Source: Patescibacteria group bacterium (lineage in GTDB: Bacteria > Patescibacteriota > Minisyncoccia > JACQLN01). Taken from it: a stretch of 64,000 bases of DNA. Of the stretch, positions 33,635-63,601 are shown in pieces. The notes under the pieces were generated by a model that had not been told where the DNA came from, did not search any database, and saw nothing but the letters and a program-made list of their open reading frames with translations. Numbering within the stretch: the first letter of the stretch is position 1; each line of letters begins with the position of its first letter. The stretch is from the NCBI GenBank assembly GCA_038065095.1, contig JBBTRR010000001.1, positions 113,546 to 177,545 on the forward strand, in the 5' to 3' direction. Position numbers and translations under genes: made by a program.

Positions 33635-34987
33635 ATGACTATATTTATTTCTTGTTTTTTTAATTTAGTTGCGAGAAATGTTTTACATACAAAGTTTTTT
33701 GAATATTTAAAAAAAACGAAGGGTTACAGGATTATTTTACTTGTGCCTAAAATTAATGCTGATGCTTTTAAAAAAGAATTTTCTAATACTAACATAATTA
33801 TAGAATCAGTTCATTTTTTGCCTATGTCTAAAATTAATTTGTTATTTCACTGGTTGTCCTGGAACCTGCTCAATACTAAAAGTAAAAAAATTCATAAAAT
33901 AGTCCAGTTTGGAAAAGATTCTAATAGGCTTATGTATATGTTTACATCCTTTTTGGGTTGGTTGGGGGGATACAAAATAATCAGAAAAATCTTTAGAAAG
34001 CTAGATTATTGGTTGGTGCCCAGGGGTATGTTTGACTACTTATTTAACAAATATAAACCCGATATGGTTTTGGCCACAGATATACAGGATTTAAGGGTTC
34101 AAGAGCTATGTGATACATCGTTGGTCAGAGAGGCTAAAAGAAGGGGTATCTACAGTATGGGTATGGGTAGGTCTTGGGATAGTATGACCACCAAAGGCCT
34201 GTTAAGAACATTGCCAACTAAACTGGTTGTGCAGAGTGTTTCTATTAAGGATCAGGCTGTAAGGTATCACAGCGTTGACTCTGAACAGATTGTTGTAACT
34301 GGTACTTTGCATTACGATAAATATGTTTTAGATGAACGCACGTCTAGAGAAACTTTTTTTAGAGAACTAGGTTTTGACCCATCTAAAAAACTAATTCTTC
34401 TTACCATCCCTAGTGATATTTGGACAGGCAACGCTTCTCTTAGCCATTATTTGCTTAATATATTTTCTCAATTGAACGATCAAATAATTGTTCGTTTTCC
34501 ATTATTTGGTAAAGTTGATATTGGAGATTTTAAACCAGCTCAAACGATGGTTTTTGATAATCCATATAATTCTGATCGTTTGGAAGAATCTCGTTTAAGT
34601 ATAAGCGACGATGATCATTTGGCCGACTTAATATATCATAGTGATGTTGTTGTGACTGGCCCGTCGAGTATAATATTAGATGCGTCAATTTTTAATAAGC
34701 CGATAGTTTTGATAGGTTTTGATGGTGAAGAAGCTAGGCCATATGGGCAGAGTATGGCCAGATATTATGATTATGAACATCAACAATTAGCTATTTTATC
34801 GGGTGGAATGAAAGTAGCTAAAGATAGAGATCAATTAATAAATCTAGTTTTAGAATACCTAGCAAATCCAGATTTAGATAATAAAGGTCGTCGGCAAGTA
34901 GCAGAAAATATTTGTTTCAAACTAGATGGCCAATCGGGTTTGCGATTGGCTCAATTAATATGGAATACCTTAACCCCGAAGAAATAA
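33635..34987 (+). CDS. GT-B-fold transferase, paralog family member 1 of 4 (TagB/TagF-like CDP-polyol phosphotransferase motif resemblance)
   Basis: SWDSMTTKG mid-motif. C-terminal VVVTGPSSIILDASIFNKPIVLIGFDG resembles the TagF DYSSVxFDFxxLxKPxIFF pattern. VRFPLFG resembles the HP motif. Confidence 0.55.
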   Translation: MTIFISCFFNLVARNVLHTKFFEYLKKTKGYRIILLVPKINADAFKKEFSNTNIIIESVHFLPMSKINLLFHWLSWNLLNTKSKKIHKIVQFGKDSNRLMYMFTSFLGWLGGYKIIRKIFRKLDYWLVPRGMFDYLFNKYKPDMVLATDIQDLRVQELCDTSLVREAKRRGIYSMGMGRSWDSMTTKGLLRTLPTKLVVQSVSIKDQAVRYHSVDSEQIVVTGTLHYDKYVLDERTSRETFFRELGFDPSKKLILLTIPSDIWTGNASLSHYLLNIFSQLNDQIIVRFPLFGKVDIGDFKPAQTMVFDNPYNSDRLEESRLSISDDDHLADLIYHSDVVVTGPSSIILDASIFNKPIVLIGFDGEEARPYGQSMARYYDYEHQQLAILSGGMKVAKDRDQLINLVLEYLANPDLDNKGRRQVAENICFKLDGQSGLRLAQLIWNTLTPKK

Positions 34988-35718
34988 TAACCTCTAGAAA
35001 AAACATAAAAGAAAAACTAAGTAAATTTGTTGGTCCGACGATAAGACACAAATCTGGTATTAAGTTTTTTTCTAAATATGCAGATATTTTTTTAGTTCAG
35101 TACAATCATTTAAAAGAAGATATTAAGGTTCTTGATTGTGGAGTTGCTGGTGGAGGTTTCGCAAAAGATCTTTATGAGGCCGGCTATAAAAACATCTACG
35201 GTGTTGATATTGATGACTATTTATCTCCAGACAATAGACCTCTTATTAAAGAATTTAAAACTGCCGATTTAAGTTTCGATAAGATTCCTTGGCCAGATAG
35301 TTATTTTAAGGTTGTTACAGCTTGGTGTGTTTTACCGCATTTGGAGAATCCACATAACTTTATTAGAGAAACTTACAGAGTTCTTGAGCCGGGTGGTTTA
35401 TATATAATTTCTTTAGTCAATATAATTTCTTGGCCCAATAGAAAATATTTTATGATTCATAAAGAATTTCCTTCTTATCACGCTAGTAATAATCATATTA
35501 CACTTTTTACTCCGGCAATTTTTAAAAAGACCATTTTAAAATATTTTGATTTAGTAGGTACAGAGTATTTTATAACTCCAAGAATTTTTTATGGATTTAA
35601 AGGTAATATCAGAAAATATGTACTAAATTTTTTGTATTTTTTAAATAATTCACTCGGAGAATTACTATATGCACGTTGGGGCGCTAAGATAGTTTATATT
35701 TTAAAAAAGAAGAACTAG
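34960..35718 (+). CDS. Class I SAM-dependent methyltransferase; paralog of 32853-33608
   Basis: VLDCGVAGGGFAKDL, DLSFDKIPWPDSYFKVVTAWCVLPHLENPHNFIRETYRVLEPGGLYII. Start set at MEYLNPEE by alignment with the paralog's MQYFNPHE. Confidence 0.7.
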   Translation: MEYLNPEEIITSRKNIKEKLSKFVGPTIRHKSGIKFFSKYADIFLVQYNHLKEDIKVLDCGVAGGGFAKDLYEAGYKNIYGVDIDDYLSPDNRPLIKEFKTADLSFDKIPWPDSYFKVVTAWCVLPHLENPHNFIRETYRVLEPGGLYIISLVNIISWPNRKYFMIHKEFPSYHASNNHITLFTPAIFKKTILKYFDLVGTEYFITPRIFYGFKGNIRKYVLNFLYFLNNSLGELLYARWGAKIVYILKKKN

Positions 35719-35719
35719 C

Positions 35720-37174
35720 TTATTTTTTAATTATTTTATATATACTAACTTCTGGATTTTTATAAACTAATTCGAATTTATCTTTTTTATCAAAATTAGT
35801 TTTACTAAATTGTTTTTCCCATGGACCATAGTATATAAAATCGGCATCAATTTTTTCTAGATCAATAGGTATTTGGTCATAGTTTTTTATCAAATTAGTT
35901 ATATATTCTTTGGTTATATGTTTAGGATCGGCTAAATATTTGTTAATGGAACCTATTCGAAAATAATGGAAATAAAGATGCCAAAGATTTTTTCGTAGGT
36001 TTTGATCGGTATTAGGAGGACATAGTTCTTTGGAACAATCTATATTAAGAGTACCTGTTAATTGCTTTTCAATAGTCTCAGAATTAACATTAAAAATTTT
36101 GTTAGTTAATAAAAATCTTTTTTCTAATTCGTCGGTAGTTTTAGTGGTTAAATTGCCTAGTGGCAAAAAAGGCCGAGCCGATGTATAGGCGCCTAGGTAT
36201 AAAGAAGTCATAAACGAATTTGAGATTATTTTTGGTTCTGGTTTTAGATCTGCGTTAATCCATTCCCAAGATTCTTTTATGCTTTGTGAAAATTTATAAT
36301 TTTCCTGAATTCTAATTTCGGGATTATTTTTAATTACAAAGACATTAACTATTTTTTTTGATACAACCACTAAAGTTAGAATAACTAAGGTAATTGTTAC
36401 TATCTTTTTAACTTGTGAGCTTTTTATAGTAAATCTGGATGATAGTTCATAACAGATCATTCCAATTATTATAAATAAAAGAGGGCTGATGGTTCTTCTA
36501 AAATTATTAGGAGCAGGCACAAAACCTGTAATCAACTGGATATTCCAAATTAAGGTGGCAGATGTTAAAAAACTCCAAATGAGTATTGTTTTTAGACGGT
36601 CTTTATGCCAAAAAACTTTATAAGCTATTAATGCTAAGACTATATAAAAAATATAATCAAAGCCGAGTTCGGCAAGTCCTGGTTCTCTGCCTTCTGCTAT
36701 TCCGAGGCGATGCGTGTAGTCTGCTGATGCATTTGATTTAGAGAAGTTTAGGTAATTAATAAAATATGGAGTAGCAATTAATGTTAATGTTGCTATTAAT
36801 AAAATAAAATTTTTGAAACGAGCATTATTCCGGTGTTCGAAAATTAATGTATATAAAAAAAGTAGTGAAATTACTATTACCCAATAAACCCAATAATGAA
36901 AATAAAAATAAAATAATAATCCTGCTGGTATGGCGGCACCCAGGGCGTTTAGTTTGGTGGGTTTTTGCCAAAAATATATTAAGCCAGCGATAGCCAGAAT
37001 AAAAATAGGAAAGACAAATAATGGATAATCAAATCTGGCAAAGTAAAGTTTTTCTATTTGAGTATTTATTCCCGGAAAAAATTGTTTTACAAAATAGCCC
37101 AGAAACTCTCTAAAAGTTTCTTTTAGACCATCGGAACCTGTATCAGTAAAAATTTGTTGTAGTTTAAGCTCCAT
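35720..37174 (-). pseudogene. GT-C (ArnT/PMT-like) membrane glycosyltransferase, C-terminal ~485-aa part of a frameshift-split copy; paralog of 54110-55948
   Basis: YFARFDYPLFVFPIF...HYWVYWVIV and the C-terminal ADFIYYGPWEKQFSKTNFDKKDKFELVYKNPEVSIYKIIKK align to the intact paralog. It continues the 37164-37625 ORF in a different frame. Confidence 0.6.
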
Positions 37175-37625
37175 CAAAATTTAAAATTCTTAAAGCAATA
37201 GGCGTAAGAATTCCAATATATGCAAAAAGTAAAGACCAAATAAATGATCTATTAAACAAAATGCGACCCAGTAAGAAAAATAATAAAAATATTATTAAAG
37301 AAAATATAAATACCGCCGATAAATATGAAGTGACTACATTGCCATCAAACACAGTTAGAAAGGTAGTCATTATTAGCGAAGGGATAGCATTTAATACTGT
37401 TTTACCCTGATCATCAAAGTAAATATCTACGGGTGGCCAGTGTCCATCGTATATTTCTCTGGCTCGGTTCATATATATAAGTTCATCACGGTGTATTGCG
37501 TAATTAAGAACAAAGGGTTGTTCTTTTGCTTCAAATTGCTGTTTAATTACAAGAGGTGGCAGAATGTATAGAATTCCAACCAGAATAGATGATCCAGCAA
37601 TGACTAATATTTTTGCTAGTTTCAT
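37164..37625 (-). pseudogene. GT-C (ArnT/PMT-like) membrane glycosyltransferase, N-terminal 153-aa part of the split copy
   Basis: HRDELIYMNRAREIYDGHWPPVDIYF carries the DE loop-1 motif of GT-C enzymes. It overlaps the downstream part by 11 nt, out of frame. Confidence 0.6.
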
Positions 37626-40205: not shown

Positions 40206-40207
40206 AA

Positions 40208-42663: not shown

Positions 42664-42670
42664 TTTGATT

Positions 42671-43606
42671 ATGATTAAAGAAATTGGTGATTATATAATA
42701 GTAAATTATCATTACGTTGAAGACACTAGGCTAGATTGGGGTGGTATTCACCCCTGTTCTGTAAAAGAATTTGAAAGGCAGGTTGATTTTTTATCTAAAA
42801 ATTTTGAAATTGTTTCTATGGGTCAGGTTTTTAATTCTGCAAAAAATGGATTAAGTGGAAAGTTTTGTGCCATTACTTTTGATGATGGGTTAAAAGGGCA
42901 ATATGAAAATGCTTTACCGATTTTACTTAACAATAAAGTTATCGGTACTTTTTTTCCAATAACCTCAACTTTTGAAGGTAGATTGCCGGCTACTCATAAA
43001 GTACATGCTTTGCTTTCGCATATATCTTCTTTAGAGCTTATTGATATTTTTCATAAATTTATTAAAGAATTTTATCCAGATATTGAGTCCACATATTTTA
43101 TCCCTAAAGATAAGCGTTTATTTGAACGAAGAAAACATGAAGATTTATTCACCGCTAATTTTAAAGAAACTATGATTAGCTTACCAGAAGATATAAAGGG
43201 CAGGTTTTTAAGATATTGTTTTAAAATGATGAAGCTTGATGAGAAAAAAATAAGCAAAGAAATTTTTATGAATAAAGACGATGTTGTAAATTTGTGTGGT
43301 CAAAAAATGGAAATAGGTAGCCATTCCCATGGGCATTATTCTATGTCGGCAGTTGGGGCAGAGTTTTTAAAAAAAGATATTCAACTCTCTAAAGATATTT
43401 TGTCTAACTTACTTAATAAAAATATTGATACTTTTTCTTATTCGCATGGTCATTACACGGATTTTGGTATAAAAGTATTAAAAGATATGGGGTTTAAGAA
43501 TGCTGTAACAATCGAACCTCGTTCTGTTACAAAAGAAGATAATGCTTTTTTGTTACCACGATATGATGCTAACGATATTAGGGATTTTATTAGTAATATT
43601 AACTAA
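42671..43606 (+). CDS. Polysaccharide deacetylase (NodB/CE4 family)
   Basis: CAITFDDGLKGQYENALPIL, HSHGHYSMS and YSHGHY. An alternative TTG start lies at 42665. Confidence 0.75.
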   Translation: MIKEIGDYIIVNYHYVEDTRLDWGGIHPCSVKEFERQVDFLSKNFEIVSMGQVFNSAKNGLSGKFCAITFDDGLKGQYENALPILLNNKVIGTFFPITSTFEGRLPATHKVHALLSHISSLELIDIFHKFIKEFYPDIESTYFIPKDKRLFERRKHEDLFTANFKETMISLPEDIKGRFLRYCFKMMKLDEKKISKEIFMNKDDVVNLCGQKMEIGSHSHGHYSMSAVGAEFLKKDIQLSKDILSNLLNKNIDTFSYSHGHYTDFGIKVLKDMGFKNAVTIEPRSVTKEDNAFLLPRYDANDIRDFISNIN

Positions 43607-43609
43607 ATA

Positions 43610-44506
43610 ATGTCCGATAATAAATTTGATTATAGTCAGGCTAAATACGAAAAAATAAACTGTAACTTATGCAGTCAAGACAATAATGAACCCATTAGTC
43701 GTAAGGATCGTTATGGCTTACGAGTTCAGACGGTGATTTGTATAAATTGTGGTCTAATTTTTATTAATCCTAGAATGAGTCGAATTGATTATGATCAATT
43801 TTATCAATCTACTTACAGGGCACAACTGGAGGAACGTAATGGGAAAAAAATTGATCTAGATAATCTTTTTATTAAGTCTACAAAATTGGGGCAAAAGTTA
43901 GTTGAACGAATTGGCGATTATATAAATTCCGGTTTAACTCTAGAAATTGGATCAAGTTGCGGTGGTATCTTAAACGGTCTTAAACTGGCTAGACCATATT
44001 TAGAAATTTTAGGGTTAGAACCTTCTTCCATAGAGGCCAAATATGCTAATGACAAAGGCATAAAGACTTTCGTTTCAATGTTTGAGGGTTTTCAGGAGTC
44101 TCTGCCTTCTTTGCAAAATATTTTTATAGTGCGCAGTTTTAATCATTTGCTCGGCCCGGCTGGTTTTATAAAGTGGTCGCACGACCAGCTTTCTTCGGGA
44201 GGTAAGTTAGTAATTATGGTTATTGATTTTATAGAAGCTTGTCGTAATCGTGGCGCACTAAAAACACAAATTGATCATCCTTATATGTTTACTCAAAAAA
44301 CCCTAGTTAGTTTTGTGCAAAGTGGTGGTTTTGATATAGAATACAATATTGTTGAAGGTGATTATATTTATCTGGTTGCAAGAAAAAATAACCATAAACC
44401 TTTTAACAAATTGGAAATAAACCCTCTGGCCTATAAAGATGCAAAGAAATATTTGAAGCCGTTCAAGCTGTGGTGGAATTATCAGGTTAATAAGTTATTT
44501 AATTAG
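43610..44506 (+). CDS. SAM-dependent methyltransferase with an N-terminal Cys4 zinc ribbon (sugar C-/O-methyltransferase-like)
   Basis: CNLCSQ...CINCGLIFINP zinc ribbon, then LEIGSSCGGILNGL. Paralog of 52210-53187. Confidence 0.65.
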   Translation: MSDNKFDYSQAKYEKINCNLCSQDNNEPISRKDRYGLRVQTVICINCGLIFINPRMSRIDYDQFYQSTYRAQLEERNGKKIDLDNLFIKSTKLGQKLVERIGDYINSGLTLEIGSSCGGILNGLKLARPYLEILGLEPSSIEAKYANDKGIKTFVSMFEGFQESLPSLQNIFIVRSFNHLLGPAGFIKWSHDQLSSGGKLVIMVIDFIEACRNRGALKTQIDHPYMFTQKTLVSFVQSGGFDIEYNIVEGDYIYLVARKNNHKPFNKLEINPLAYKDAKKYLKPFKLWWNYQVNKLFN

Positions 44507-44508
44507 AA

Positions 44509-45846
44509 ATGATGAATACTATTTTTATTACTTCGTTTCATCCATCAATAGGTCAAAATATTCTATCAGGAGATGTGGTAAAGAAACTACTGTTAAGAGA
44601 AGATGTAAGGATTGTTATTTTTTGTCCGGACTATAAAACAAGTTATTTTAAAAATGAATTTGATCATCCTCATATATTTATTGAAGGTATTAAAATCGAA
44701 AAACCGACATGGCATGATATTCTTTTTGGTTATATAAGTCGATCAGTCATTAGCAGTTCAACTTTACTTATACATCGAAAAGAACTTTTTTACAGGAAAA
44801 AAAAGATTTTACCTTTTGTGTTTTCTTATTTCTTAGTGATTTTAGGCCGAATGTTTTTTCTAAAAAAAGTTATTAGATGGTTAGATCAACTAACATCTCC
44901 CAAAAGTAAATTTGAAAACTATTTTAAAAAATACAATCCTAAACTAATTTTTGCCACAGATGTATTTAATCGAGATGATATTGATTTTTTGGCATGTGCT
45001 AAAAGAGCAGGTGTATTTAGGGTCGGTATGGTTCGTTCTTGGGATAACATAACGGGGAAAGGCTTGATTCGTATAAAGCCAGATATGTTGATCGTTCCAA
45101 ACGGAATAATAAAAGAAGAGGTTATAAAATATCAAAGCATACCACCCAAATATATATATGTGAGCGGGTTACCGCAAATGGATTTTTATGTTAAAAACAC
45201 AGACAGGATGAGTAGAGAAGTTTTTTTTTCAAAAATTGGTTTAAATCCTAACAAAGTTACTATTTTTGTAGCCCCCCATGGTAGACGCTTTTTTAATGAT
45301 GATGGTTTTTTATTAGAAAAACTTAAAGGATTACCTTATCAATATATAGTTCGTCTGCCCCCCAATGACACTATTAATTATCTCAATTTTATTCCTAGCT
45401 CCATTTTTTTTATTGAACATCCCGGTATATCATTTAAAGAGGGTGTATACAATAACAGGGAATTGTCCTTGAGCGATTCTTTTATGTTGGCTACTGAACT
45501 TTTTTATGCTGATGTTGTATTAAACTATGGTTCCACCATTTCTATTGAAGCTGCTTTTTACGATAAACCGATCATAAATTTTTTTGGTGATGCCCAAAAA
45601 AATTTACCATATATACAAAGCGAAAGAAGATTTTTTGACTTTAGTCATTTGAATAAGCTGTGGAATCTAAATTTTTGCAAGGTATCATATAATTTTGATG
45701 ATCTTAAAAAGCAAATTGATGAATACTTAAAAAACCCCTTACTAGATAAAAAGGGTCGATCAGATTTTTTGAGGCTGCAAGCAGGATATTTAGATGGGAA
45801 ATCGGGGGCTAGAATTGCGGATTTTTTATTAAATCACCTGAACTAG
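44509..45846 (+). CDS. GT-B-fold transferase, paralog family member 2 of 4
   Basis: VRSWDNITGKG, IVRLPPND, VVLNYGSTISIEAAFYDKPIINFFGD. Confidence 0.55.
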   Translation: MMNTIFITSFHPSIGQNILSGDVVKKLLLREDVRIVIFCPDYKTSYFKNEFDHPHIFIEGIKIEKPTWHDILFGYISRSVISSSTLLIHRKELFYRKKKILPFVFSYFLVILGRMFFLKKVIRWLDQLTSPKSKFENYFKKYNPKLIFATDVFNRDDIDFLACAKRAGVFRVGMVRSWDNITGKGLIRIKPDMLIVPNGIIKEEVIKYQSIPPKYIYVSGLPQMDFYVKNTDRMSREVFFSKIGLNPNKVTIFVAPHGRRFFNDDGFLLEKLKGLPYQYIVRLPPNDTINYLNFIPSSIFFIEHPGISFKEGVYNNRELSLSDSFMLATELFYADVVLNYGSTISIEAAFYDKPIINFFGDAQKNLPYIQSERRFFDFSHLNKLWNLNFCKVSYNFDDLKKQIDEYLKNPLLDKKGRSDFLRLQAGYLDGKSGARIADFLLNHLN

Positions 45847-49810: not shown

Positions 49811-50033
49811 GCTTTTAAATATTTTAAGCAGAGTACTAGATATTAAAATAGAAGATATAAATGATAATATTGGTCCCGACAACACAGAAGGTTGGGATTC
49901 TTTTAATGGTTTGTTATTAGCCACCGAACTAGAAAAAGAATTTAAAGTTAAATTTACCATGGAAGATATTGTTTCGATTAAAAATGTTGGGGATATAAAA
50001 ACTATTTTAAAAAAACGTGGTTTAAAAATTTAA
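49803..50033 (+). CDS. Acyl carrier protein
   Basis: 76 aa with GWDSFNGLLLATELEKEF; the DS(L/F) phosphopantetheine-attachment serine is in a helix II context. Confidence 0.7.
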   Translation: MNKLLNILSRVLDIKIEDINDNIGPDNTEGWDSFNGLLLATELEKEFKVKFTMEDIVSIKNVGDIKTILKKRGLKI

Positions 50034-50037
50034 TCCT

Positions 50038-50463: not shown

Positions 50464-50467
50464 TAAA

Positions 50468-51160: not shown

Positions 51161-51168
51161 ATACTAGG

Positions 51169-52182: not shown

Positions 52183-52209
52183 TTGATATATCAGATATTT
52201 ATAAAAGTT

Positions 52210-53187
52210 ATGAAGAAAAAAGCATTAGATGAGTTTCCTTATGGCGAGGCCGAGTTAGAAAATATCCCCTGTAATTTATGTGGGTCGCTAGATCATAAAA
52301 TACTGGCTAAGCGTGACCGCAACAATATCGAGATTAGCACGGTTATATGTAAGAGATGTGGTCTGATCTTTTTAAATCCAAGGATGACACGTACTTGGTA
52401 TCAAAAATATTATCAATTTGAATACCGCAGACAAGTTGAATCTTACGGCTCTAAGGAATCGGCTAGTTTGGACGATCTTTTTGATTGGTCTAAAAAACAC
52501 GGCCGATTTTTGAGCACTCTACTGGGTCAATATTTAGTTTCCGGCGGTCTTACAATTGAAGCTGGTTCTAGTGTTGGAGGAATTTTGAAGGGTTTAAACC
52601 CTTTTTTAAAGGGAGAGGTTATTGGTATAGAGCCTTCTAAATTGGAAGCAGAGTATGCTATAAGAAATGGAATCCCAACTTTGCCTGTTTTTTTTGAAGA
52701 TATTGGAACTAATGATATAGGTAAATTAAAAGGAGCAACTAATATTTTTTGTGTTCAGACCTTAAATCATCTTCAAGACCCTAAAGGTTTTTTTGACTGG
52801 GCTTACAATTCTTTAGTCGACAATGGGCGATTAGTTTTGGAGGTGAAGAATTTTAGACACCATGCTAAAAAAGTAGGTAATCTTCGCCAAGCTATTCAAA
52901 TAGACCATACTTACATGTTTTTACCGGAGACTTTAGAAAATTTTATAAAGGCTTGTGGATTTGAAATTATATTTAAGGATATAGATGAATATAAAAGCAA
53001 GAAAGAACTAGAGAATCAGGGGAAGCCCGATAGTCATATGCGTTTTGTGGCTGTTAAATCCGAGCGAGGTAAATACAAAATTTCTTATGATTATAAAAAA
53101 ATTAAAAAAACAATCAATTTTTTAAAGATTTATCTTAATTGTTTTTTTAATTATCGCTTACCTAGAAAAGTTAAATCGTTACTATAA
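52210..53187 (+). CDS. SAM-dependent methyltransferase with an N-terminal Cys4 zinc ribbon; paralog of 43610-44506
   Basis: CNLCGS...CKRCGLIFLNP and IEAGSSVGGILKGL. The ORF could start at 52183. Confidence 0.65.
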   Translation: MKKKALDEFPYGEAELENIPCNLCGSLDHKILAKRDRNNIEISTVICKRCGLIFLNPRMTRTWYQKYYQFEYRRQVESYGSKESASLDDLFDWSKKHGRFLSTLLGQYLVSGGLTIEAGSSVGGILKGLNPFLKGEVIGIEPSKLEAEYAIRNGIPTLPVFFEDIGTNDIGKLKGATNIFCVQTLNHLQDPKGFFDWAYNSLVDNGRLVLEVKNFRHHAKKVGNLRQAIQIDHTYMFLPETLENFIKACGFEIIFKDIDEYKSKKELENQGKPDSHMRFVAVKSERGKYKISYDYKKIKKTINFLKIYLNCFFNYRLPRKVKSLL

Positions 53188-53192: not shown

Positions 53193-54113
53193 ATGGAAAA
53201 AAATTCAACTAAGCTTATGATATCTGTTATATTTCCAACCTATAACGAAGAGGGTAATGTAGGAGAACTTCATAAATTAAATAAAGAAACTTTAGATAAA
53301 ATTGGTTTACCTTATGAAATAATAATCGTAGATAATGGATCTAAAGATAATACTCTCGCTATTTTAAAGGGGCTTTCTCCTATTAAAATTATATCTTTGA
53401 CCAAAAACTTTGGACAAACAGCTGCATTGGAAATTGGGATTAATTCTGCTAAGGGAGACATGATTGTAATTATGGATGGTGATATGCAAAATGATCCGCG
53501 CGATATTCCCAAGTTACTATCAAAATTAGAAGAAGGCTATGATGTTGTTTCGGGTTGGAGAAAAGATAGGCACGATAATTTTATTAGAAAGGCTCATTCA
53601 TATTTAGCTAACTGGCTTACCAGAAAAATTTCTGGCCTCAACCTTCGTGATCATGCTTGTGCTTTAAAAATTTATCGAAAAGAGTTTTTAAAACAAATAA
53701 GATTATACGGTGTTCAGCATGTTTTTCTAGCGGCTCAAGTTTATGGATTTGGTGCTCGCATTGCAGAAGTAGAAGTTGTACATCATGCTAGAAAACACGG
53801 TTTATCCAAGCATCATTTTTTTGCTGGTATTAAGGCCATAGCAGATTTAATAATGGTCAGATTTTTGTCTCCCGATACTAGACCTTTTGTTTTTTTTGCT
53901 GGTTGCGGTTTTTGGATATGGTTTTTAGGTATCGTAAATGCAGTATTGGGTGCTATCTATGGAAGCCGTGGTTTTATTATAGTCGCTCTGATTTTAACTG
54001 GTTTAGGCTTTCTTTTATTTGTTTTGGGGTTTATGTCGGAGCTTTTAAGAAGAATTTATCTTGAATTAAGATCAGAAAGGCCAATCTTGGTAAAAGAAAT
54101 AATTGAACAATGA
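53193..54113 (+). CDS. GT2 polyprenyl-phosphate sugar synthase (ArnC/DPM1/GtrB-like), paralog 2
   Basis: ISVIFPTYNEEGNV, IIIVDNGSKD, IVIMDGDMQNDP, and C-terminal TM helices. It overlaps the downstream GT-C by 4 nt. Confidence 0.8.
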   Translation: MEKNSTKLMISVIFPTYNEEGNVGELHKLNKETLDKIGLPYEIIIVDNGSKDNTLAILKGLSPIKIISLTKNFGQTAALEIGINSAKGDMIVIMDGDMQNDPRDIPKLLSKLEEGYDVVSGWRKDRHDNFIRKAHSYLANWLTRKISGLNLRDHACALKIYRKEFLKQIRLYGVQHVFLAAQVYGFGARIAEVEVVHHARKHGLSKHHFFAGIKAIADLIMVRFLSPDTRPFVFFAGCGFWIWFLGIVNAVLGAIYGSRGFIIVALILTGLGFLLFVLGFMSELLRRIYLELRSERPILVKEIIEQ

Positions 54114-55948
54114 ATTTAATTAAAAAGTACTGGCTCATTGTTATGTTGTTGGCTCTTTTAGTTGGTGTTTTATATATCGCACCCCAAATCATAATTAAAA
54201 TGAGAGTAGAGGGTTTGGGACATAAATTTATTTTATTTCAATTCATTGAGTTGGCTGACGGTGGCGATGCTTATTTTCAATTTGCTAGAGAGATTTATGA
54301 AGGTCATTTTCCTCCTGGAGATTTATTCTCTGACAAAAATTTACCGAATATTTATCCTTGGTTACCCCCGCTTTTTTTTGGTTTTTTAATTAAAATTCTT
54401 AAAGATATAAATTTAGCCTATATAGCTGCTAATTTTATTTTTCCAGCACTTTTTTTTACATTATTCTATTTTTTAGGGCAGGTTATTTTTAAAAAAAATA
54501 AATTATGGTCTTTATTTCTTGCTTTGGTGGCTGTCTTAACCCCGATGCCGCTTTTGGCAGACAGAATGTTTTTTAGTTTTAAATTATTTGGTGATATTTT
54601 TTTAAAAAATTTTTATCCTGAAGTTAAGACTATCTTGCCTACTCTTTACTTTTCTAGAGCTGATTATCCTCTTCTTACTCACATTTTTTATTTGCCAGCT
54701 ATAATCACTCTCTTTATTTTTTGGCGTAGACCTGGGTTTAAAACGGCGATGTTGGCTGGTTTTACAGGAGGATTATTAGCTTACGTTTATTTTCATAAGT
54801 GGGTATATTGGATGGTTGTGTTAGGTTTCCTTTTTTTATTATCTATATTTTTTCTAAAAAAAGAAACCAAAAGATTACAACTTTTTTTAGTTTTAGGTTT
54901 TACCACCATCTTAACTAGTATTCCTTATTTTATAAATTATTTTAGATTAGCCAGCTTCAATGGTTCTAAGGATTTAATACAAAGATTATCTCTTGAAGTG
55001 GGGAGGTCGGTAAATTTATCTGTTTGGCCTCAATATATAATTTATTTTTCTTTGGCGGTATTAGTTTATTTGATTTATTTTAAAAAAGATTTACCATTAA
55101 CCATTTTGTATTGGTCGTTTTTATTAGCAGCTTTTTTTGTTTGGAATATTCAGGTTATAATCGGTTTTGTTCCGCACTCCGATCACTGGCCAAGGGCAAT
55201 AAATCCCTTGATTTTTTTAGTTATTTTTGATTTGGCTTATAATTTAGTCCAAAGAATAATAAAGCGAGTGCCCACATTAAACAGGGTCTTTATTTTTAGC
55301 ATGGTTTTATTGATGGTTTTATTGGTCTTTAAAAAAACGATAAACGCAGTTAAATTTTTAGAAGTCCCAAATGATCAAATAATTTCTAACTATACACTAC
55401 CAGAGAGTGTTTTAGATTCTTATTCTTGGATTGAAAAAAACTATAGCGAACCTATTGTGATTTCGCCTTCTTTTATATCATCTATTTATCTTTCTGCTTT
55501 TACTTCTAGTCGTCCTTTTTTGCCATGGGGTGGCGTTAGTCCTATGTCTAATTACTCTTTAGAAGAGTTATTTTTGAAATCTAATAAGAATTTTTATATA
55601 CCAAAAAACATTTTTACAGAAAGGCTCGAGAAAAATGGTTTGCCGTGTACTAAAAAATGTAATTTGCTCTATGTTAATGCAAATTTTAAAGACACTAGAC
55701 TTTATTTATATCAACTTTATTTTATGGATAAAAATAATACGCAAAATAGAGATATTCCTGCATATAAAATCGAAGAATTATCTCAACGTTATGATAAACT
55801 AGAAACCAGTTGGAAAAAAACAGGGGCTGATTTGGTATATCTTGGTCCATGGGAGAATATTTTTAATGGTTCTATTTTAAAAAATGATAAAGATCTATCT
55901 CTTGTTTATTCTAATAAAGAAGTGGAGATTTATAAAATTATAAAATGA
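54110..55948 (+). CDS. GT-C fold membrane glycosyltransferase (ArnT/PMT-like; polyprenyl-P-sugar dependent), intact 612-aa copy
   Basis: About 12-13 TM helices. Loop-1 motif ADGGDAYFQFAREIYEGHFPPGD. C-terminal periplasmic domain. Translationally coupled to the upstream GT2. Confidence 0.65.
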   Translation: MNLIKKYWLIVMLLALLVGVLYIAPQIIIKMRVEGLGHKFILFQFIELADGGDAYFQFAREIYEGHFPPGDLFSDKNLPNIYPWLPPLFFGFLIKILKDINLAYIAANFIFPALFFTLFYFLGQVIFKKNKLWSLFLALVAVLTPMPLLADRMFFSFKLFGDIFLKNFYPEVKTILPTLYFSRADYPLLTHIFYLPAIITLFIFWRRPGFKTAMLAGFTGGLLAYVYFHKWVYWMVVLGFLFLLSIFFLKKETKRLQLFLVLGFTTILTSIPYFINYFRLASFNGSKDLIQRLSLEVGRSVNLSVWPQYIIYFSLAVLVYLIYFKKDLPLTILYWSFLLAAFFVWNIQVIIGFVPHSDHWPRAINPLIFLVIFDLAYNLVQRIIKRVPTLNRVFIFSMVLLMVLLVFKKTINAVKFLEVPNDQIISNYTLPESVLDSYSWIEKNYSEPIVISPSFISSIYLSAFTSSRPFLPWGGVSPMSNYSLEELFLKSNKNFYIPKNIFTERLEKNGLPCTKKCNLLYVNANFKDTRLYLYQLYFMDKNNTQNRDIPAYKIEELSQRYDKLETSWKKTGADLVYLGPWENIFNGSILKNDKDLSLVYSNKEVEIYKIIK

Positions 55949-56799: not shown

Positions 56800-57822
56800 A
56801 TGCAGTTTATTCTAGGGTCCTCAGTAGCTCCAGTAGCTCCAGTGGTTACAGAAACACCGTTTCGTTTGCCGCTTGGAGGTGGTTCCACAGATTTGCCTTC
56901 ATACTACGAAAAGTACGGTGGTTTTATTTTTGGAGTTGCTATCGATTTTTATATTCATGTTTTTTTGAAGCGTTTAAGAATAGACCGACGTATTCAGTTT
57001 CATTACACTGCTTGTGAGACGGTAAACTGTTTACACGAAGTGCATCATGGTATAGGTCGCGAGGCATTAAGAATGGTTGGTATTGATAATTCCATTAGTG
57101 TGACATTTAATGCTGATTCTCCATCTGGTACTGGGCTCGGTTCTTCGGGGAGTTACGCTGTCGGCCTTTTAAATGGTCTTTATGCTTTGGAAGGAAAGAC
57201 TAAGGATCCAAGGTTTTTGGCAGAGAAAGCTTTTGAAATAACCACCAACTTGGGTTGGTGTGATGGTAAGCAAGATCCATATCTTGCGGCGTATGGTGGC
57301 TTTACGGTGCTTAATATTGACCAAAACGGTCATGTTGCGGTCTCTAAGCCAGATATAAGGGAATACACCATAGATCGCTTTTTAAGCCAGACCCTATTAT
57401 TTTATACCGGTACCAAAAGAGATGGACAAAGTGGTGATATTCTTAAAGAACAGGATGAACAACGTGTTTTAGAACTAAAGCATGGAACTAAAGAAATAGG
57501 ATTAAAAATTTTGGTAGCTTTTGAAAATGGCGATTTAGATGAGTTTGGCCGGTTGATGGATAAGCATTGGCATATTAAAAGACAGATGTCTGGCAAAATC
57601 AGTTCTGACAAGTTTGATGCCATTTACGAAATGGCAAAACAGGCTGGGGCTTTGGGTGGAAAATTGGTAGGCGCTGGCGGCGGTGGCTATTTTATTTTTT
57701 ACTGCCCCACGTCGCTTTCCAAGAGTCGTGTTTCTATTGCTTTAACAGAAGCTGGTTTGCAAAGAGCCGATTTCGGTATTGATTATAAGGGGTCTACGAC
57801 TGTAACCATACCAAGGATGTAG
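56800..57822 (+). CDS. GHMP-family sugar kinase (HddA / galactokinase / fucokinase-like)
   Basis: PSGTGLGSSGSYAVG (GHMP motif II) and KLVGAGGGGYFIFY (motif III). Confidence 0.75.
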   Translation: MQFILGSSVAPVAPVVTETPFRLPLGGGSTDLPSYYEKYGGFIFGVAIDFYIHVFLKRLRIDRRIQFHYTACETVNCLHEVHHGIGREALRMVGIDNSISVTFNADSPSGTGLGSSGSYAVGLLNGLYALEGKTKDPRFLAEKAFEITTNLGWCDGKQDPYLAAYGGFTVLNIDQNGHVAVSKPDIREYTIDRFLSQTLLFYTGTKRDGQSGDILKEQDEQRVLELKHGTKEIGLKILVAFENGDLDEFGRLMDKHWHIKRQMSGKISSDKFDAIYEMAKQAGALGGKLVGAGGGGYFIFYCPTSLSKSRVSIALTEAGLQRADFGIDYKGSTTVTIPRM

Positions 57823-58007: not shown

Positions 58008-59546
58008 ATGTCAAGAAAAGTTCTTATTATATATCCACCAAACCAGTTAAACCCCACTGAAGCTCCTCGTCCAGAAGGGTCATTGGGCCCTCTTTACTTA
58101 GCTTCGGCTTTGGAAAATGCAGGTATAGAAACTGATCTGGTGGATGCTTCTGTAGGAACGGAAGACGATAAGCTGGAAGACACTTTTAACAACCCAGTGA
58201 TGCAACTAAACGGTCTTATAAGGATTGGTATGTCTTTTGATCGTATCCGTGAGTTTATCGCTTTAGGCGGTTACGATGTGGTAGCGATTCATTCAAATTT
58301 TACTCCCCAGACCCGTATGGTTTTGGAAACAGCCAAAATAATAAAGGAGATCAATCCAGAAATTTTGGTTATCAGTGGAGGGGTAAATGCTCGGCATATT
58401 CTGGAACGTCTTTTGGGTATAGGTTTTGTTGATTTAATCTGCATCACCGAAGGAGAAAGGATTATTGTTAAAATAGTTAAACAGTGGAGGCTTAATCGAT
58501 CATTTGACGGTGTAGATGGTGTTGTCTTTATGGAATCGGGCCGGTTGGTTTATCGGCCAGTAAATTCCGATAGTGTGGTCCAAAATTTAGACGAGTTGCC
58601 TGTGCCGGCGTGGCATAAATTGCCTTTGGCTAAATATGCCGAGATTACTTCTCCGCATGGCGATGTGGTTTTGAGTGAGAAATATATTTATGCTCCCATG
58701 ATGACTTCTCGCGGTTGCCCATTTAAATGTGCTTATTGCCATATATCGTTAGAAAAAGAAAAACATGACGATATTGGTAATCTAAGACTCAAGTCTGTGG
58801 ATCGCGTTATGCGTGAAATAGAAATTTTAAAATCTTTAGGTGTTACCAAGGTTTACATCGAAGATGATAGCTTGCTTGCCAAGAAAGCTCGCGTTAAAGA
58901 AATTTTTACACGCCTTTTGGGTGCTGGCTTAAAAATCGCCGATGTAAATGGTGTCAACCTTGTTCATCTTTTTGTAAGAGACAGAGCTACAGGAAAATTA
59001 AGGGTGGATAGAGATTATTTAGAGTTGCTCTGTGCATCTGGTTTTGATCAAATTAGTTTTCCTGTTGAATCCGGTGTTCAAAGGGTTTTGGATAAATATG
59101 CTACCGGTAAACTCGTTTTAGAAACAATGGACATAGCTGGGTTGGTAAGGGTCGCTTCCGATGTAGGTATTTCTTGTCCTGTCGGTATCATGATGGGTTT
59201 TCCAGATGAAACAGAGGCAGAGATTCTCCAAAGTGTGGAATTAGCAAAAAAGTTAGTTGATGCTGGAGCCAAGTATTGTTCTTTTTATATTCCCATTCCT
59301 TTTCCGGGTAGTCAGCTTTATCATATGGCTATTGCCGGTGGACATCTGGATGCAAATTTTGATCCAGACATTATGAACTGGCATCGGCCGGTTATGAAAA
59401 ACACTACCGTGCCGCCGGAAAGAGTTTTGGAACTTCGTGAATGGGCTTGGCGTTCGGTTAATCGAGATGACTATGTAGCTGAACGGTTGAGTAAAAACAT
59501 AGGTACAAGGTGGAGTTCTTTTAAGCCAGTTAGCGATGAAAATTAA
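58008..59546 (+). CDS. B12-binding radical SAM domain protein (class B radical SAM enzyme)
   Basis: N-terminal cobalamin-binding-like Rossmann domain, then TSRGCPFKCAYCH (C-x3-C-x2-C radical SAM cluster motif). 512 aa. It has its own promoter-like TTGACA/TATGGT upstream. Confidence 0.8.
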   Translation: MSRKVLIIYPPNQLNPTEAPRPEGSLGPLYLASALENAGIETDLVDASVGTEDDKLEDTFNNPVMQLNGLIRIGMSFDRIREFIALGGYDVVAIHSNFTPQTRMVLETAKIIKEINPEILVISGGVNARHILERLLGIGFVDLICITEGERIIVKIVKQWRLNRSFDGVDGVVFMESGRLVYRPVNSDSVVQNLDELPVPAWHKLPLAKYAEITSPHGDVVLSEKYIYAPMMTSRGCPFKCAYCHISLEKEKHDDIGNLRLKSVDRVMREIEILKSLGVTKVYIEDDSLLAKKARVKEIFTRLLGAGLKIADVNGVNLVHLFVRDRATGKLRVDRDYLELLCASGFDQISFPVESGVQRVLDKYATGKLVLETMDIAGLVRVASDVGISCPVGIMMGFPDETEAEILQSVELAKKLVDAGAKYCSFYIPIPFPGSQLYHMAIAGGHLDANFDPDIMNWHRPVMKNTTVPPERVLELREWAWRSVNRDDYVAERLSKNIGTRWSSFKPVSDEN

Positions 59547-60540: not shown

Positions 60541-60552
60541 TAGTAATAATAT

Positions 60553-61560
60553 ATGTCTAATAAAGTTTTTTCCTTGGCGCTCGTGGGTGCGGGTGGTATT
60601 GCTTATAAATGGGTCAAAGCTATCAGTAAAGTTAAAAATTGTTCTTTAAGGTTGGTAGTAGATGTGGATATAAATAAAGCAGAATTACTTTCTAAAAATT
60701 ATAAAAATTGTGAACATACAGATAAGTTAAATGATGTTTTATCAAGATTGGATATAGATGCTGTCATAGTAGCAGTGCCCAATAGTATATCTGCCAAGAT
60801 CTCTAGAGAAATTATTAAGTCGGGTAAACATGTTTTATGTGAAAAACCAGGCGCTGTTAATTCCAAAGAATTAAAATCCATTATTTTAGAGGCTAAAAAA
60901 TATAAGAAAAATTTTATGGTCGGGTTTAATCATAGATTCCATCCAGCCTTTTTACAGGCAAAAGAAATTTTTGATAAAGGTGAAATAGGTGAAGCTATGT
61001 TTATAAATTCTAGATATGGTTTTGGTGGTCGGGAAAACTATAATAAAGAATGGCGTTTTAATAAAAAAATAAGCGGGGGCGGAGAAATAATTGACCAAGG
61101 TGTTCATATGATTGATATGGCCCGTTTATTTTTAGGAGAATTTAATGAAGTTAAGGCTTATACGCCTAATCTTTTTTGGGGTGGAAATGTGGAAGATAAT
61201 GGTTTTATACTTTTAAAAACCATAAAAAAACAAATAGCTGCAATTCATGTTAGCTGGACTAATTGGAAATGGATTCATTCTTTTGAAATTATGGGTACAT
61301 TAGGCTATTTACGTATAGATGGTTTGGATCAGCGTTATAACGGGCCGGAGAAATTAACTATAGGATATCGTGATCTTTTATTTAAAAAATCTCCACAAGA
61401 AAAAGTTATAATATTTAAAAACGAAAAACCCGAAGATTCTTTCACTAGACAGTTAAAAGAATTTTTATCTGCTATAAGTGAAGATAGAAATTCTGTTCCA
61501 GATAGTCGTGATGCTTACGAAGTTTTAAAAATAGTTGATAAAATTTATGAAAAAAAATAA
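60553..61560 (+). CDS. Gfo/Idh/MocA-family NAD(P)-dependent sugar oxidoreductase
   Basis: LALVGAGGIAYKWV Rossmann, and the family's HVLCEKP motif. Confidence 0.8.
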   Translation: MSNKVFSLALVGAGGIAYKWVKAISKVKNCSLRLVVDVDINKAELLSKNYKNCEHTDKLNDVLSRLDIDAVIVAVPNSISAKISREIIKSGKHVLCEKPGAVNSKELKSIILEAKKYKKNFMVGFNHRFHPAFLQAKEIFDKGEIGEAMFINSRYGFGGRENYNKEWRFNKKISGGGEIIDQGVHMIDMARLFLGEFNEVKAYTPNLFWGGNVEDNGFILLKTIKKQIAAIHVSWTNWKWIHSFEIMGTLGYLRIDGLDQRYNGPEKLTIGYRDLLFKKSPQEKVIIFKNEKPEDSFTRQLKEFLSAISEDRNSVPDSRDAYEVLKIVDKIYEKK

Positions 61561-61987
61561 AGGATTGGTTTTGGTTCTTGGTGGAGCTGGCTTTATAGGA
61601 TCTCATTTAGTAGACGCATTACTTAAAGATAATTATAGAGTTAGAGTATTAGACAACCTAGCCCCACCTACCCATAACGGCAAATTGCCCTCTTGGTTTA
61701 ACAAAAAAGCAGAATTTGTTAAAGGGGATGTTCGTAAGAGACAAGACTTGATTCGTGCTATGGTTGGGGTTGATTTTATTTTTCACTTGGCAGCCTATCG
61801 GATTAATATACCTAGACATCAAAGTATGGACATTTCAAAATTGAAATCATTAGGTTGGGCGCCCAATCATTTTATCGAAGAAAATGTTTCGGAGTATGTT
61901 GACTGGGTAAGGTCATTTCCTGAAGCAAAAGCTTTTTTTAAAAAAAGCCAAGTATCGATGGGGAAAAAGGGTATAATTAAGGTATAA
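61547..61987 (+). pseudogene. Internally deleted NAD-dependent epimerase/dehydratase remnant
   Basis: Has the N-terminal LVLGGAGFIGSHLV and a C-terminal tail (LKSLGWAP...), but lacks the catalytic S...YxxxK core. It is about 147 aa against an expected ~310. Confidence 0.5.
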
Positions 61988-62054: not shown

Positions 62055-62213
62055 ATGAAAGCTGATTGGTCACAAACTAATTCTAGCTTTGTTTATTATG
62101 GTCCTTGGGAGAAACAGTTTAGCCAAGTAAATTTTTCTAAAGATTCTAGATTAGAATTAATTTATAAAAATTCTTTAGTCGAAATTTTTAAGATTAAAAG
62201 TGACACTTTGTAA
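62055..62213 (+). pseudogene. C-terminal remnant (52 aa) of a third GT-C paralog
   Basis: SFVYYGPWEKQFSQVNFSKDSRLELIYKNSLVEIFKIK matches the C-termini of 35720-37174 (ADFIYYGPWEKQFSKTNFDKKDKFELVYKNPEVSIYKI) and 54110-55948. Stops lie in frame upstream. Confidence 0.6.
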
Positions 62214-62254
62214 CAATTGTGTGCTAATTATGGTTATAGATATACAGTATCAAT

Positions 62255-63601
62255 ATGAGCAAAAAAACCGTATTTTTAGCCATACCTAATCATATTTCTG
62301 CGTCAGATTTATTACGTACTCATTACTTGGAGTATTTGGCTTCGAAATATAAAGTTATTGTGATAACACCTTTTTTAAATTCCAATGATGCAGTTAAACA
62401 AAAGCATTTTTTATCACCAGATGTGGAGTATAAAAAAAGAGATTTAGAAAACCCAAGATTTTGGATGTTTTTTAAATTTTTACGTATTTGTTGGGTTAAC
62501 GAATTTGATTATATTACTTCTATAAAATATTGGTATAAAAGGCCTAATTATAAAAATAGTTTGGCCAGGCGGATAGTTAGAACTATAGGCAGGCCTTTTT
62601 CTAAATTTTTAACAGCGAATTTTTTTACTAAAGTTGAGTATAGATTATTGCCCAAGTCAAAAGATTTTACCGAACTAGTTAAACAACATAATCCAGTATT
62701 GGTTATTACAGCCACCCCAGGTTTTGATCCGTGGGAAGCCGAAATAATTTTTTTAGCAAAACGTGAAAAAACTCCTACAGTAGCGGTTAATTTTAGTTGG
62801 GATAATTTAACTACTAATTCTAAACACATTCGCAAAACTGATTTTTTGATTGCTTGGAATAATATTATGAAAAAAGAGGCTTTAGAGATTCATAACTATA
62901 CTACCGCTAAGGTTTTTGTATCTGGTACGCCAAGGTTTGACCCTTATTTCGATGTTGCTCAATCAGAGCCAACCAAAGAAAAATTTTTGGTAAGCAAAGG
63001 CTTAAATCCAAGTTATAAAACTATTTTTCATACTACGGTGACCAAAGCGTATCCTTTCCAGAAAAAATATATCTATGATCTAATAAAACTTAGAAAAGAA
63101 GGAAAGATACCCTATGTGAATTTATTTATACGAATTCATCCCTTAGATATTTATGATAATTATAGAGAGTTTTTTAATATGCCCGATTTATATATAGAAC
63201 CCGCCGGCCGATCAGGCAGTAAAGCAGTGGAGATGAATTATCAAGACTTGCTTAATCTTAAATATTCTCTAAAATATACCGATTTAAATATAAATTATGC
63301 CTCCACCATTTCTATAGAAGCCTGTATTTTTGATAAGCCTATTATAAATATTGGTTATTTAGATCGTTTTAAATTGGCTTACGAATTTAATCATTACATT
63401 CCTATATATAAGAGTGGTGCTGTAAGGCTGGCCAAAACAGACGAAGCTTTAAAAGATTTAATAAACTTGTATTTAGCAGACCCATCTTTAGATGGAGCTA
63501 ATAGAAAAAAAATTGTGTTAGATTACGTTATTTTTTTAGATGGCTTATCTTATAAGAGAAGTGTAGATGCTTTAGAACAAATAATAAAATCTGTTATATG
63601 A
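62255..63601 (+). CDS. GT-B-fold transferase, paralog family member 4 of 4
   Basis: NFSWDNLTTNS, IRIHPLD, INYASTISIEACIFDKPIINIGY. Confidence 0.55.
   Translation: MSKKTVFLAIPNHISASDLLRTHYLEYLASKYKVIVITPFLNSNDAVKQKHFLSPDVEYKKRDLENPRFWMFFKFLRICWVNEFDYITSIKYWYKRPNYKNSLARRIVRTIGRPFSKFLTANFFTKVEYRLLPKSKDFTELVKQHNPVLVITATPGFDPWEAEIIFLAKREKTPTVAVNFSWDNLTTNSKHIRKTDFLIAWNNIMKKEALEIHNYTTAKVFVSGTPRFDPYFDVAQSEPTKEKFLVSKGLNPSYKTIFHTTVTKAYPFQKKYIYDLIKLRKEGKIPYVNLFIRIHPLDIYDNYREFFNMPDLYIEPAGRSGSKAVEMNYQDLLNLKYSLKYTDLNINYASTISIEACIFDKPIINIGYLDRFKLAYEFNHYIPIYKSGAVRLAKTDEALKDLINLYLADPSLDGANRKKIVLDYVIFLDGLSYKRSVDALEQIIKSVI

Follow-up and report, generated by a model that had tools for sequence, protein, structure and literature searches.

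Four TagF-fold GT-B paralogs in a patescibacterial surface-glycan cluster are putative CMP-nonulosonic acid glycosyltransferases

Which donor is used by four related GT-B proteins that are encoded in one surface-glycan cluster of a groundwater Patescibacteria (candidate phyla radiation [CPR]) genome, and what do they build? The proteins are encoded in a 64,000-nucleotide stretch of contig JBBTRR010000001.1 (assembly GCA_038065095.1, positions 113,546 to 177,545 of the forward strand), which we call the window and whose coordinates are used below. An initial annotation of the window had described them as a family of four GT-B paralogs with a C-terminal motif like that of TagB and TagF and had proposed that they act as polyol-phosphate or glycosyl transferases in the synthesis of a teichoic-acid-like polymer. 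Our analysis points to another donor. The four proteins are ancient paralogs of a large, mostly patescibacterial family of probably membrane-associated GT-B enzymes and, with a probability of roughly 0.6, are glycosyltransferases that use nonulosonic acids activated with cytidine monophosphate (CMP-ulosonates). We regard the family as a divergent variant among the CMP-dependent transferases with the TagF fold; it is related to, and lies outside, the nonulosonic acid transferase family of Tannerella.

The four open reading frames (ORFs) were all real and lie on the + strand, and they encode 450 (paralog 1, 33635 to 34987), 445 (paralog 2, 44509 to 45846), 458 (paralog 3, 46478 to 47854), and 448 (paralog 4, 62255 to 63601) amino acids. 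A MAFFT alignment covered their full length; 40 of its columns were invariant, and the other three proteins were 24 to 32% identical to the first. A blastp comparison of paralogs 2 and 3 gave an E value of 2e-53. Paralog 2 is identical to an NCBI entry annotated as a patescibacterial hypothetical protein (AAB394_00840). By these measures, the similarity is far beyond chance, and the four-member family described initially was borne out. The shared motifs were likewise recovered in the multiple alignment: an N-terminal T-I/V-F, a central S-W-D-(N/S/K)-x-T, and a C-terminal S-(T/S)-I-(S/I)-(I/L)-(E/D)-A-x-x-(F/Y)-(D/N)-K-P-(I/V)-(I/V). Two details had to be corrected. The (V/I)-R-x-x-P motif was found in all four proteins, but the aspartate said to follow it is kept only in paralogs 2 to 4 and not in paralog 1 (VRFPLFG), and the claimed HP motif is retained in paralog 4 (IRIHPLD) but in none of the other three. 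The closest orthologues of the four paralogs in other genomes had identities of 41, 51, 57, and 83%, the last value belonging to paralog 4.

The GT-B fold was confirmed by an AlphaFold2 model that was made for paralog 2 from 60 homologues, with a predicted local distance difference test score (pLDDT) of 94.8 and a predicted template modeling score (pTM) of 0.92. The N-domain of the model carries a four-helix insertion of hydrophobic and basic character at about residues 68 to 129, a plausible membrane-association element. The Pfam model Glyphos_transf (PF04464) scored 46.5, 22.3, 38.3, and 19.6 bits for paralogs 1 to 4, so that three of the four exceeded the gathering threshold of 22.1; the match covered only the C-terminal third of paralogs 1 and 3 and profile positions from about 130 onward in paralogs 2 and 4. 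When the family was compared by hhalign with seven genuine TagF-family proteins taken from plasmids, the two aligned with 98.7% probability (E = 1.8e-16) from the DxLIxxN strand through GxPxxD to the C terminus. The TagB/TagF-like motif noted initially was thereby borne out, and by these profile comparisons the C-terminal domain is truly homologous to that of TagB, TagF, and TarL. The N-domains behaved differently: neither the global nor the low-MAC (maximum accuracy) mode of hhalign could align those of the family to canonical TagF-family N-domains, and the hidden Markov model (HMM) failed to place a fragment of TagF comprising residues 439 to 486. Searches of the PDB sequences with 4- and 60-sequence profiles found only the C-domains of TarL and Cps3D, and Foldseek against the PDB returned only generic GT-B and 2-epimerase matches with poor template modeling scores. 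The other two profiles suggested as checks, Capsule_synth (KpsC/KpsS) and Glyco_tran_28 (MurG-type), had no Pfam match at an E value of ≤1 in any paralog. The statement that the family is uncharacterized stands.

The reference system for these proteins is the group of TagF, TarL, TarF, and TagB together with the TagF-like capsule polymerases (PF04464; PDB entries 3L7I, 8VA1, and 8QOY). Both groups have the homologous C-domain, from DxLIxxN and GxPxxD through (S/T)-x-x-x-D-A-x-x-F-D-K-P to the end, and a membrane-associated region, and in both reactions CMP should be the group that leaves. This likeness is an argument for the first alternative, in which the paralogs are transferases of the TagB/TagF type that move glycerol phosphate or ribitol phosphate to prime or polymerize a teichoic-acid-like polymer, with the cytidine diphosphate (CDP)-polyol made elsewhere in the genome. 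Three paralogs pass the Pfam cutoff, the Prokaryotic Genome Annotation Pipeline (PGAP) labels many members "CDP-glycerol glycerophosphotransferase family protein," and tandem fusions of two GT-B units look like capsule polymerases. Nevertheless, we regard this alternative as unlikely. Unlike genuine members of the TagF family, the paralogs have Pfam scores at or just around the threshold and an N-domain that cannot be aligned to the canonical one, and the active site and the gene neighborhood differ as well.

The catalytic residues of TagF are H444 and H584 (PMC5974469). They stand in the sequence motifs YIQTW-H444-GTPLK and LLRM-H584-YL, and structures of the H444N and H584A mutants have been deposited in the PDB as 3L7J and 3L7M, respectively. 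The HMM and hhalign alignments set the family motif L-V-R-x-P-P on L-L-R-M-H-Y of TagF, matching R282 of paralog 2 with R582 and P284 with H584. At this position, paralog 1 has proline (VRFPL, 34490 to 34504), as does paralog 2 (V-R282-L-P284-P285, 45349 to 45363), while paralog 3 has glutamine (VRFQP, 47342 to 47356) and paralog 4 histidine (IRIHP, 63128 to 63142); the second catalytic histidine is thus missing from three of the four. Across 156 family sequences, the residue was Pro in 65, His in 39, Gln in 19, Tyr in 16, and Thr in 10, and in about 75% of the family R-M-H584 of TagF is replaced, mostly by R-x-P, R-x-Q, or R-x-Y. The variation follows three old subfamilies: the one containing paralogs 1 and 2 has mostly Pro, that of paralog 3 mostly Gln, and that of paralog 4 always His (all 23 members).

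The position of the first histidine appears to be taken by an aspartate. The Asp of S-W-D is present in 154 of the 156 sequences and in all four paralogs (34172 to 34180 in paralog 1; S177-W178-D179, 45037 to 45045, in paralog 2; 47009 to 47017 in paralog 3; and 62795 to 62803 in paralog 4), where it would be equivalent to H444 of TagF and H300 of TarL, W-H444-G having become S-W-D. We propose this equivalence because in both families the Trp ends the strand that precedes the DxLIxxN strand and because the candidate base directly follows the Trp, with a Lys five residues further on (W-H-G-T-P-L-K versus W-D-N-x-T-x-K). The sialyltransferases PmST1 and NST employ a carboxylate (Asp/Glu) as the general base in the N-domain, which would match the invariant Asp of the paralogs. 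More generally, the polysialyltransferase SiaD (GT38) and the sialyltransferases of GT52 and GT80 have the same proposed class of donor, CMP-nonulosonate, and the same GT-B fold; unlike them, the paralogs lack detectable sequence similarity to these enzymes, do not have the D/E-D/E-G motif, and mostly lack HP.

The choice between a CMP-ulosonate and a CDP-polyol donor was decided by gene context. The window ends 400 bp after paralog 4, and the same contig continues (the downstream stretch designated L006) with genes for a GNAT protein, a 605-amino-acid protein with multiple transmembrane segments, a dehydratase/epimerase, a sugar-1-phosphate nucleotidyltransferase, a GT2 enzyme, and a 2-hydroxyacid dehydrogenase. 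These are followed by NeuB, NeuC, and a CMP-nonulosonate synthetase, which sit 7 to 9 kb downstream of paralog 4 and beyond the window, and then by a Wzy_C/TPR protein. NeuC scored 320 bits with TIGR03568 (cutoff, 236), and the synthetase was PseF-like (194 bits). We saw no aminotransferase in either the window or the part of the downstream sequence that was read, and a route of the N-acetylneuraminic acid (Neu5Ac) type is therefore the simplest guess for the sugar.

The same linkage was seen in other genomes. A scan of one genome per species gave 207 relatives, from which 78 loci were kept; 28 of these have one GT-B copy, 22 have two, 24 have three, and 4 have four. Of the related loci, 49 were 15 kb or longer; among these, relatives of the CMP-synthetase were present in 33, NeuB in 29, and NeuC in 22. 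We then clustered the 1189 neighboring ORFs without any prior choice of families. The most frequent neighbors were S-adenosylmethionine (SAM) methyltransferases (51 loci), GT4 (44 loci), CTP_transf_3 (42 loci), epimerase/dehydratase (34 loci), NeuB (34 loci), GT2 (27 loci), and Epimerase_2 (26 loci), followed by an unknown membrane protein of about 620 amino acids (21 loci), a flippase (20 loci), and CE4 (19 loci). CTP_transf_3 was the sole nucleotidyltransferase among the 22 commonest neighbor families, which included no glycerol-3-phosphate or ribitol-5-phosphate cytidylyltransferase. Genuine TagD and TarI queries, taken from plasmids L090 and L092, found nothing below an E value of 1e-3 in the window, the downstream stretch, or the 78 loci (1.29 Mb), and approximate TagD and IspD queries had no match either. 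Thus, no relative of TagD, TarI, or TarJ was found in any of these sequences, whereas the canonical TagF-family genes of the two plasmids, used as controls, adjoin tagD or tarI/tarJ. Linkage to nonulosonic acid and deacetylase genes was seen in all three main subfamilies, and we rejected the idea that one subfamily alone carries it. With the inferred replacement of H444 by Asp, the absence of H584 from three of the four paralogs, and nonulosonic acid genes where polyol-phosphate genes would be expected, the polyol-phosphate part of the initial proposal was not upheld.

A second line of evidence came from outside the phylum. In the plasmid collection, the family has a single homologue, a Rhizobium "hypothetical protein" (WP_147885260; HMM E = 1.5e-55) in which the motifs read GSWDQ and RCHPQD, and its gene directly follows neuC and an acylneuraminate cytidylyltransferase gene (neuA), with a NeuB-family gene 4 kb upstream. 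On a plasmid of Rhizobium sp. WL3 (NZ_CP042825; L095, 949 to 6798), four consecutive "hypothetical proteins" of 449 to 513 amino acids are encoded upstream of NeuB. Two of the four are distantly related to the family (HMM E = 5e-9 and 8e-7), so arrays of such enzymes are not confined to Patescibacteria. In three of the related loci (L043, L045, and L055), we observed two or three separate pairs of NeuB and CMP-synthetase genes together with three GT-B copies, which suggests that a single glycan may carry nonulosonic acids of more than one kind.

The closest curated family was NCBIfam NF046086, the BFO_1060 family, which was the top curated family for all four paralogs (47.5, 45.4, 34.8, and 68.6 bits for paralogs 1 to 4) and for 58 of 60 family members. 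The TarL, TarF, and TarB models matched 10, 4, and 3 of the same 60, a further point against a polyol-phosphate donor. In paralogs 2, 3, and 4, the best BFO_1060 match spans the S-W-D stretch (residues 134 to 266, 126 to 255, and 137 to 275, respectively), of which the Glyphos_transf model stops short; in paralog 1, the best match lies at residues 321 to 446 and not in that stretch. In Tannerella, deletion of BFO_1060, Tanf_01245, or TFUB4_00887, for which a TagB-type domain was noted, removes the terminal pseudaminic acid (Pse) or legionaminic acid (Leg) derivative from the protein O-glycan, and knowledge of transferases for sialic-acid-like sugars was described as "scarce" (PMC5420450). Like the Tannerella forsythia family, the paralogs have a GT-B domain of the "TagB superfamily" and are encoded with CMP-nonulosonate biosynthesis genes (NeuB, NeuC, and CMP-synthetase); an action on a lipid-linked glycan destined for surface proteins, as in Tannerella (PMC5420450), would be a further likeness, and the HP motif is common to that family and paralog 4. 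Unlike the BFO_1060 family, the paralogs are about 450 amino acids long (versus a model of 365 positions) with a helical insertion of about 60 residues, belong to Patescibacteria and not Bacteroidota, occur in arrays of up to four copies, and lack HP in three of four cases as well as the D/E-D/E-G motif reported for the Tannerella proteins (PMC5420450); a [DE][DE]G string occurs only in paralog 2, at a nonconserved site.

Several observations weigh against a CMP-nonulosonate donor, and the function of the paralogs is putative throughout. The match of D179 with H444 is drawn from motif spacing and strand topology and not from a confident alignment, because hhalign cannot align the N-domains. 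In addition, phosphotransfer could chemically proceed with an Asp as the base, and the substitution taken by itself would therefore also suit a CDP-polyol donor. The sialyltransferase D/E-D/E-G motif is absent, and HP occurs in just one paralog. BFO_1060 scores of 35 to 69 bits are far under the cutoff of 200 and indicate, at the level of these profiles, a related family and not membership. Moreover, SpsB of Bacillus subtilis, a TagB-domain protein encoded beside Leg genes, is dispensable for Leg transfer (PMC7439481), and 16 of the 49 large loci had no nonulosonic acid gene within 10 kb.

The last count also favors a second alternative, in which the paralogs are ordinary GT-B glycosyltransferases that take a sugar activated with uridine, guanosine, or deoxythymidine diphosphate (UDP, GDP, or dTDP) from the cluster and in which the link to nonulosonic acid genes reflects no more than a shared polysaccharide locus. 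The cluster has genes for many other sugar-nucleotide enzymes; candidate donor makers are the UDP-glucose dehydrogenase, the HddA-like kinase, the sugar-1-phosphate nucleotidyltransferase, and the epimerases. However, the homology of the paralogs is specific to the CMP/CDP-dependent Glyphos_transf and BFO_1060 models and does not extend to the GT4, GT28, or GT1 models, no nucleotidyltransferase other than CTP_transf_3 was among the 22 commonest neighbor families, and the Rhizobium homologue follows immediately after neuC and neuA; we consider this alternative as improbable as a polyol-phosphate donor. A third alternative, in which the proteins are not transferases but epimerase- or hydrolase-like members of the UDP-GlcNAc 2-epimerase/NeuC superfamily that act in the synthesis of the nonulosonic acid precursor, is very improbable: it draws on weak Epimerase_2/NeuC HMM matches (E = 0.017 for paralog 1; NeuC_NnaA matches in 3 of 60 members), whereas the Epimerase_2 (PF02350) score of 14.4 bits is below the cutoff of 30.6, the cluster and 26 related loci already encode a bona fide NeuC, the C-terminal motifs conserved in the family correspond to those that bind the donor in TagF, and tandem fusions and the presence of up to four copies per locus are more in keeping with transferases.

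If the paralogs are CMP-nonulosonic acid transferases, we infer the following donor, acceptor, and order of steps. The neighboring GT4 and GT2 enzymes would assemble a lipid-linked oligosaccharide acceptor at the cytoplasmic face of the membrane, and the NeuC, NeuB, and CMP-synthetase genes at the end of the same cluster would supply the donor. Each paralog would dock on the inner face of the membrane via its helical insertion and bind the CMP-activated nonulosonic acid in the TagF-like C-domain, the CMP/CDP-nucleotide-binding domain common to TagF and TarL. The invariant Asp would deprotonate the acceptor hydroxyl on the undecaprenyl-linked oligosaccharide and CMP would leave, with R282, joined by the His in the paralog 4 subfamily, stabilizing the phosphate. 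Each of the four may act on a different acceptor or transfer a differently modified sugar. The adjacent (and elsewhere fused) CE4 deacetylases and the Zn-ribbon methyltransferases would tailor the glycan in the cytoplasm, as would the FkbH, acyl carrier protein (ACP), and GNAT functions, before it is flipped; a Wzx-like flippase would then export it, and the Wzy_C-domain protein would polymerize or ligate it.

The paralogs were also said to form part of a recurring unit of deacetylase, methyltransferase, and GT-B that had arisen by segmental duplication. The first unit (42665 to 45846) is as described. It begins with a CE4 polysaccharide deacetylase of 313 amino acids (42665 to 43606, + strand), which has no signal peptide or transmembrane segment and is therefore predicted to be cytoplasmic, and continues with a methyltransferase-like protein of 298 amino acids (43610 to 44506, + strand) with an N-terminal CxxC...CxxC zinc ribbon and a weak Methyltransf_23 match (17.4 bits), followed by paralog 2. 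The second unit has no methyltransferase and consists of a CE4 deacetylase pseudogene (45853 to 46470, + strand) followed by paralog 3; a second Zn-ribbon methyltransferase, 42% identical to the first, lies apart at 52183 to 53187 (+ strand). The pseudogene has an in-frame TAG at 46078 to 46080 and lacks an insert of about 105 amino acids found in the intact copy, to which its two halves are 49 and 33% identical, and the metal-binding motifs TFDD and HTHKH are retained in the two halves. The same split, giving gene calls of 75 and 106 amino acids, was found in four loci (L001 to L004) from four different sequencing samples, which argues against a sequencing error and for either a pseudogene that has become fixed or a recoded site.

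Recent segmental duplication was rejected, since orthologues in other genomes are closer (41 to 83% identity) than the neighbors are to each other (24 to 32%) and the DNA of the two units is similar over only 266 bp (66.5% identity). Of the 19 loci with CE4, about 12 have the CE4 gene directly beside a GT-B copy, and homologues of the Zn-ribbon methyltransferase likewise adjoin GT-B copies in other loci. A search of a representative set of 1.84 billion proteins found fusions of GT-B with methyltransferase (P0124), of GT-B with CE4 (P0246), and of GT-B with GT-B (P0121, P0122, and others). Because GT-B genes are repeatedly found paired with deacetylase or methyltransferase genes across the phylum, and such pairs are also known as fusions, the repeat consists of old, conserved modules; on these comparative grounds, deacetylase, Zn-ribbon methyltransferase, and GT-B form conserved functional modules and not a recent duplication.

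A broader and more tentative proposal is that this is the main, so far unrecognized, nonulosonic acid transferase family of CPR bacteria, working in "add-and-tailor" modules in which each GT-B enzyme adds one sialic-acid-like residue that a dedicated CE4 deacetylase or Zn-ribbon methyltransferase modifies and that FkbH/ACP-borne acyl groups may decorate further. The products would be oligo- or polynonulosonate surface glycans, possibly O-linked to surface proteins via the Wzy_C enzyme, and could mediate attachment of the episymbiont to its host. The family is large: in the 1.84-billion-protein search, clustered at 50% identity, it had about 2,066 representatives at an E value of ≤1e-30 and 5,767 at ≤1e-10. 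Annotation pipelines label its members teichoic acid glycerophosphotransferases, a label that would wrongly suggest teichoic acids in the ultrasmall Patescibacteria. Transferases for sialic-acid-like sugars are poorly known beyond a few pathogens, and the literature on nonulosonic acids in Patescibacteria held nothing specific apart from one passing mention of sialic acid genes in Peregrinibacteria. Should the CMP-nonulosonate reading be true, the paralogs would provide testable candidate enzymes for nonulosonic acid transfer and an example of a TagF scaffold re-tooled from a His base to Asp. Many groundwater CPR bacteria would then spend a large part of a tiny genome on heavily methylated, acylated, sialic-acid-like surface glycans, which would bear on their attachment to hosts.

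The wider setting of the paralogs is one long surface-glycan cluster. Positions 1 to about 25,000 of the window hold housekeeping genes, e.g., those for FtsZ, class II ribonucleotide reductase, ComEC, MurD, and ClpB. From about 25.3 kb to the end, the GC content falls to about 30% and nearly all genes are on the + strand. This part encodes GT4 and GT2 glycosyltransferases, at least seven methyltransferases, a Wzx-like flippase, a UDP-sugar dehydrogenase, a short-chain dehydrogenase/reductase (SDR), a fructose-6-phosphate-aldolase-like protein, an FkbH/ACP/phosphopantetheinyl transferase (PPTase)/MaoC/SDR/GNAT cassette, the HddA-like kinase, a B12-radical-SAM methyltransferase, and several multispanning membrane proteins of no known family. 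The flippase candidate (31487 to 32887, + strand, 466 amino acids) has a weak Polysacc_synt match and about nine hydrophobic segments and would imply a lipid-linked glycan intermediate.

The acyl-tailoring cassette (47838 to 52182, + strand) adjoins paralog 3 and comprises PPTase, FkbH (TIGR01686, 315 bits), ACP, a MaoC dehydratase, an SDR, and a GNAT-like protein; the ACP gene was placed just upstream of 50038 only via a 76-amino-acid PP-binding gene call in L001 and has no window coordinates of its own. The presence of such a full cassette among the glycan genes of a reduced CPR genome suggests an ACP-borne decoration of the sugar of the glyceryl or hydroxyacyl type, and FkbH relatives were present in 6 of the 78 related loci. 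Two types of multispanning membrane protein had no Pfam or NCBIfam match: one of about 610 amino acids with about 10 hydrophobic segments, encoded at 54110 to 55948 and again downstream (L006, 11787 to 13604), which recurs in 21 of the 78 loci, and one of 485 amino acids with about seven hydrophobic segments, encoded on the − strand at 35720 to 37177. Both are candidates for an unrecognized polymerase, ligase, or GT-C-like enzyme.

A B12-binding radical-SAM enzyme (58008 to 59546) adjoins the HddA-like GHMP sugar kinase (56800 to 57822). Its top match was the Sden_1168 P-methyltransferase family (132 bits, under the cutoff of 575), which may point to C- or P-methylation of a sugar phosphate. 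A 150-amino-acid ORF (61535 to 61987) shortly before paralog 4 resembles NAD-dependent epimerases/dehydratases in their N-terminal Rossmann part only and is probably a truncated gene remnant; in the matching contig, a 52-amino-acid ORF was called just 3′ of it (L006, 9801 to 9959). The cluster opens with an 811-amino-acid protein (26110 to 28545) of two GT4 modules, with three Glycos_transf_1 stretches, and a small methyltransferase is next. Just upstream of the cluster are genes for a 1263-amino-acid protein whose sole recognizable domain is peptidoglycan binding (21412 to 25203) and for a 404-amino-acid protein with a lamin-tail domain (13709 to 14923), both of which are possible surface proteins and glycan acceptors.

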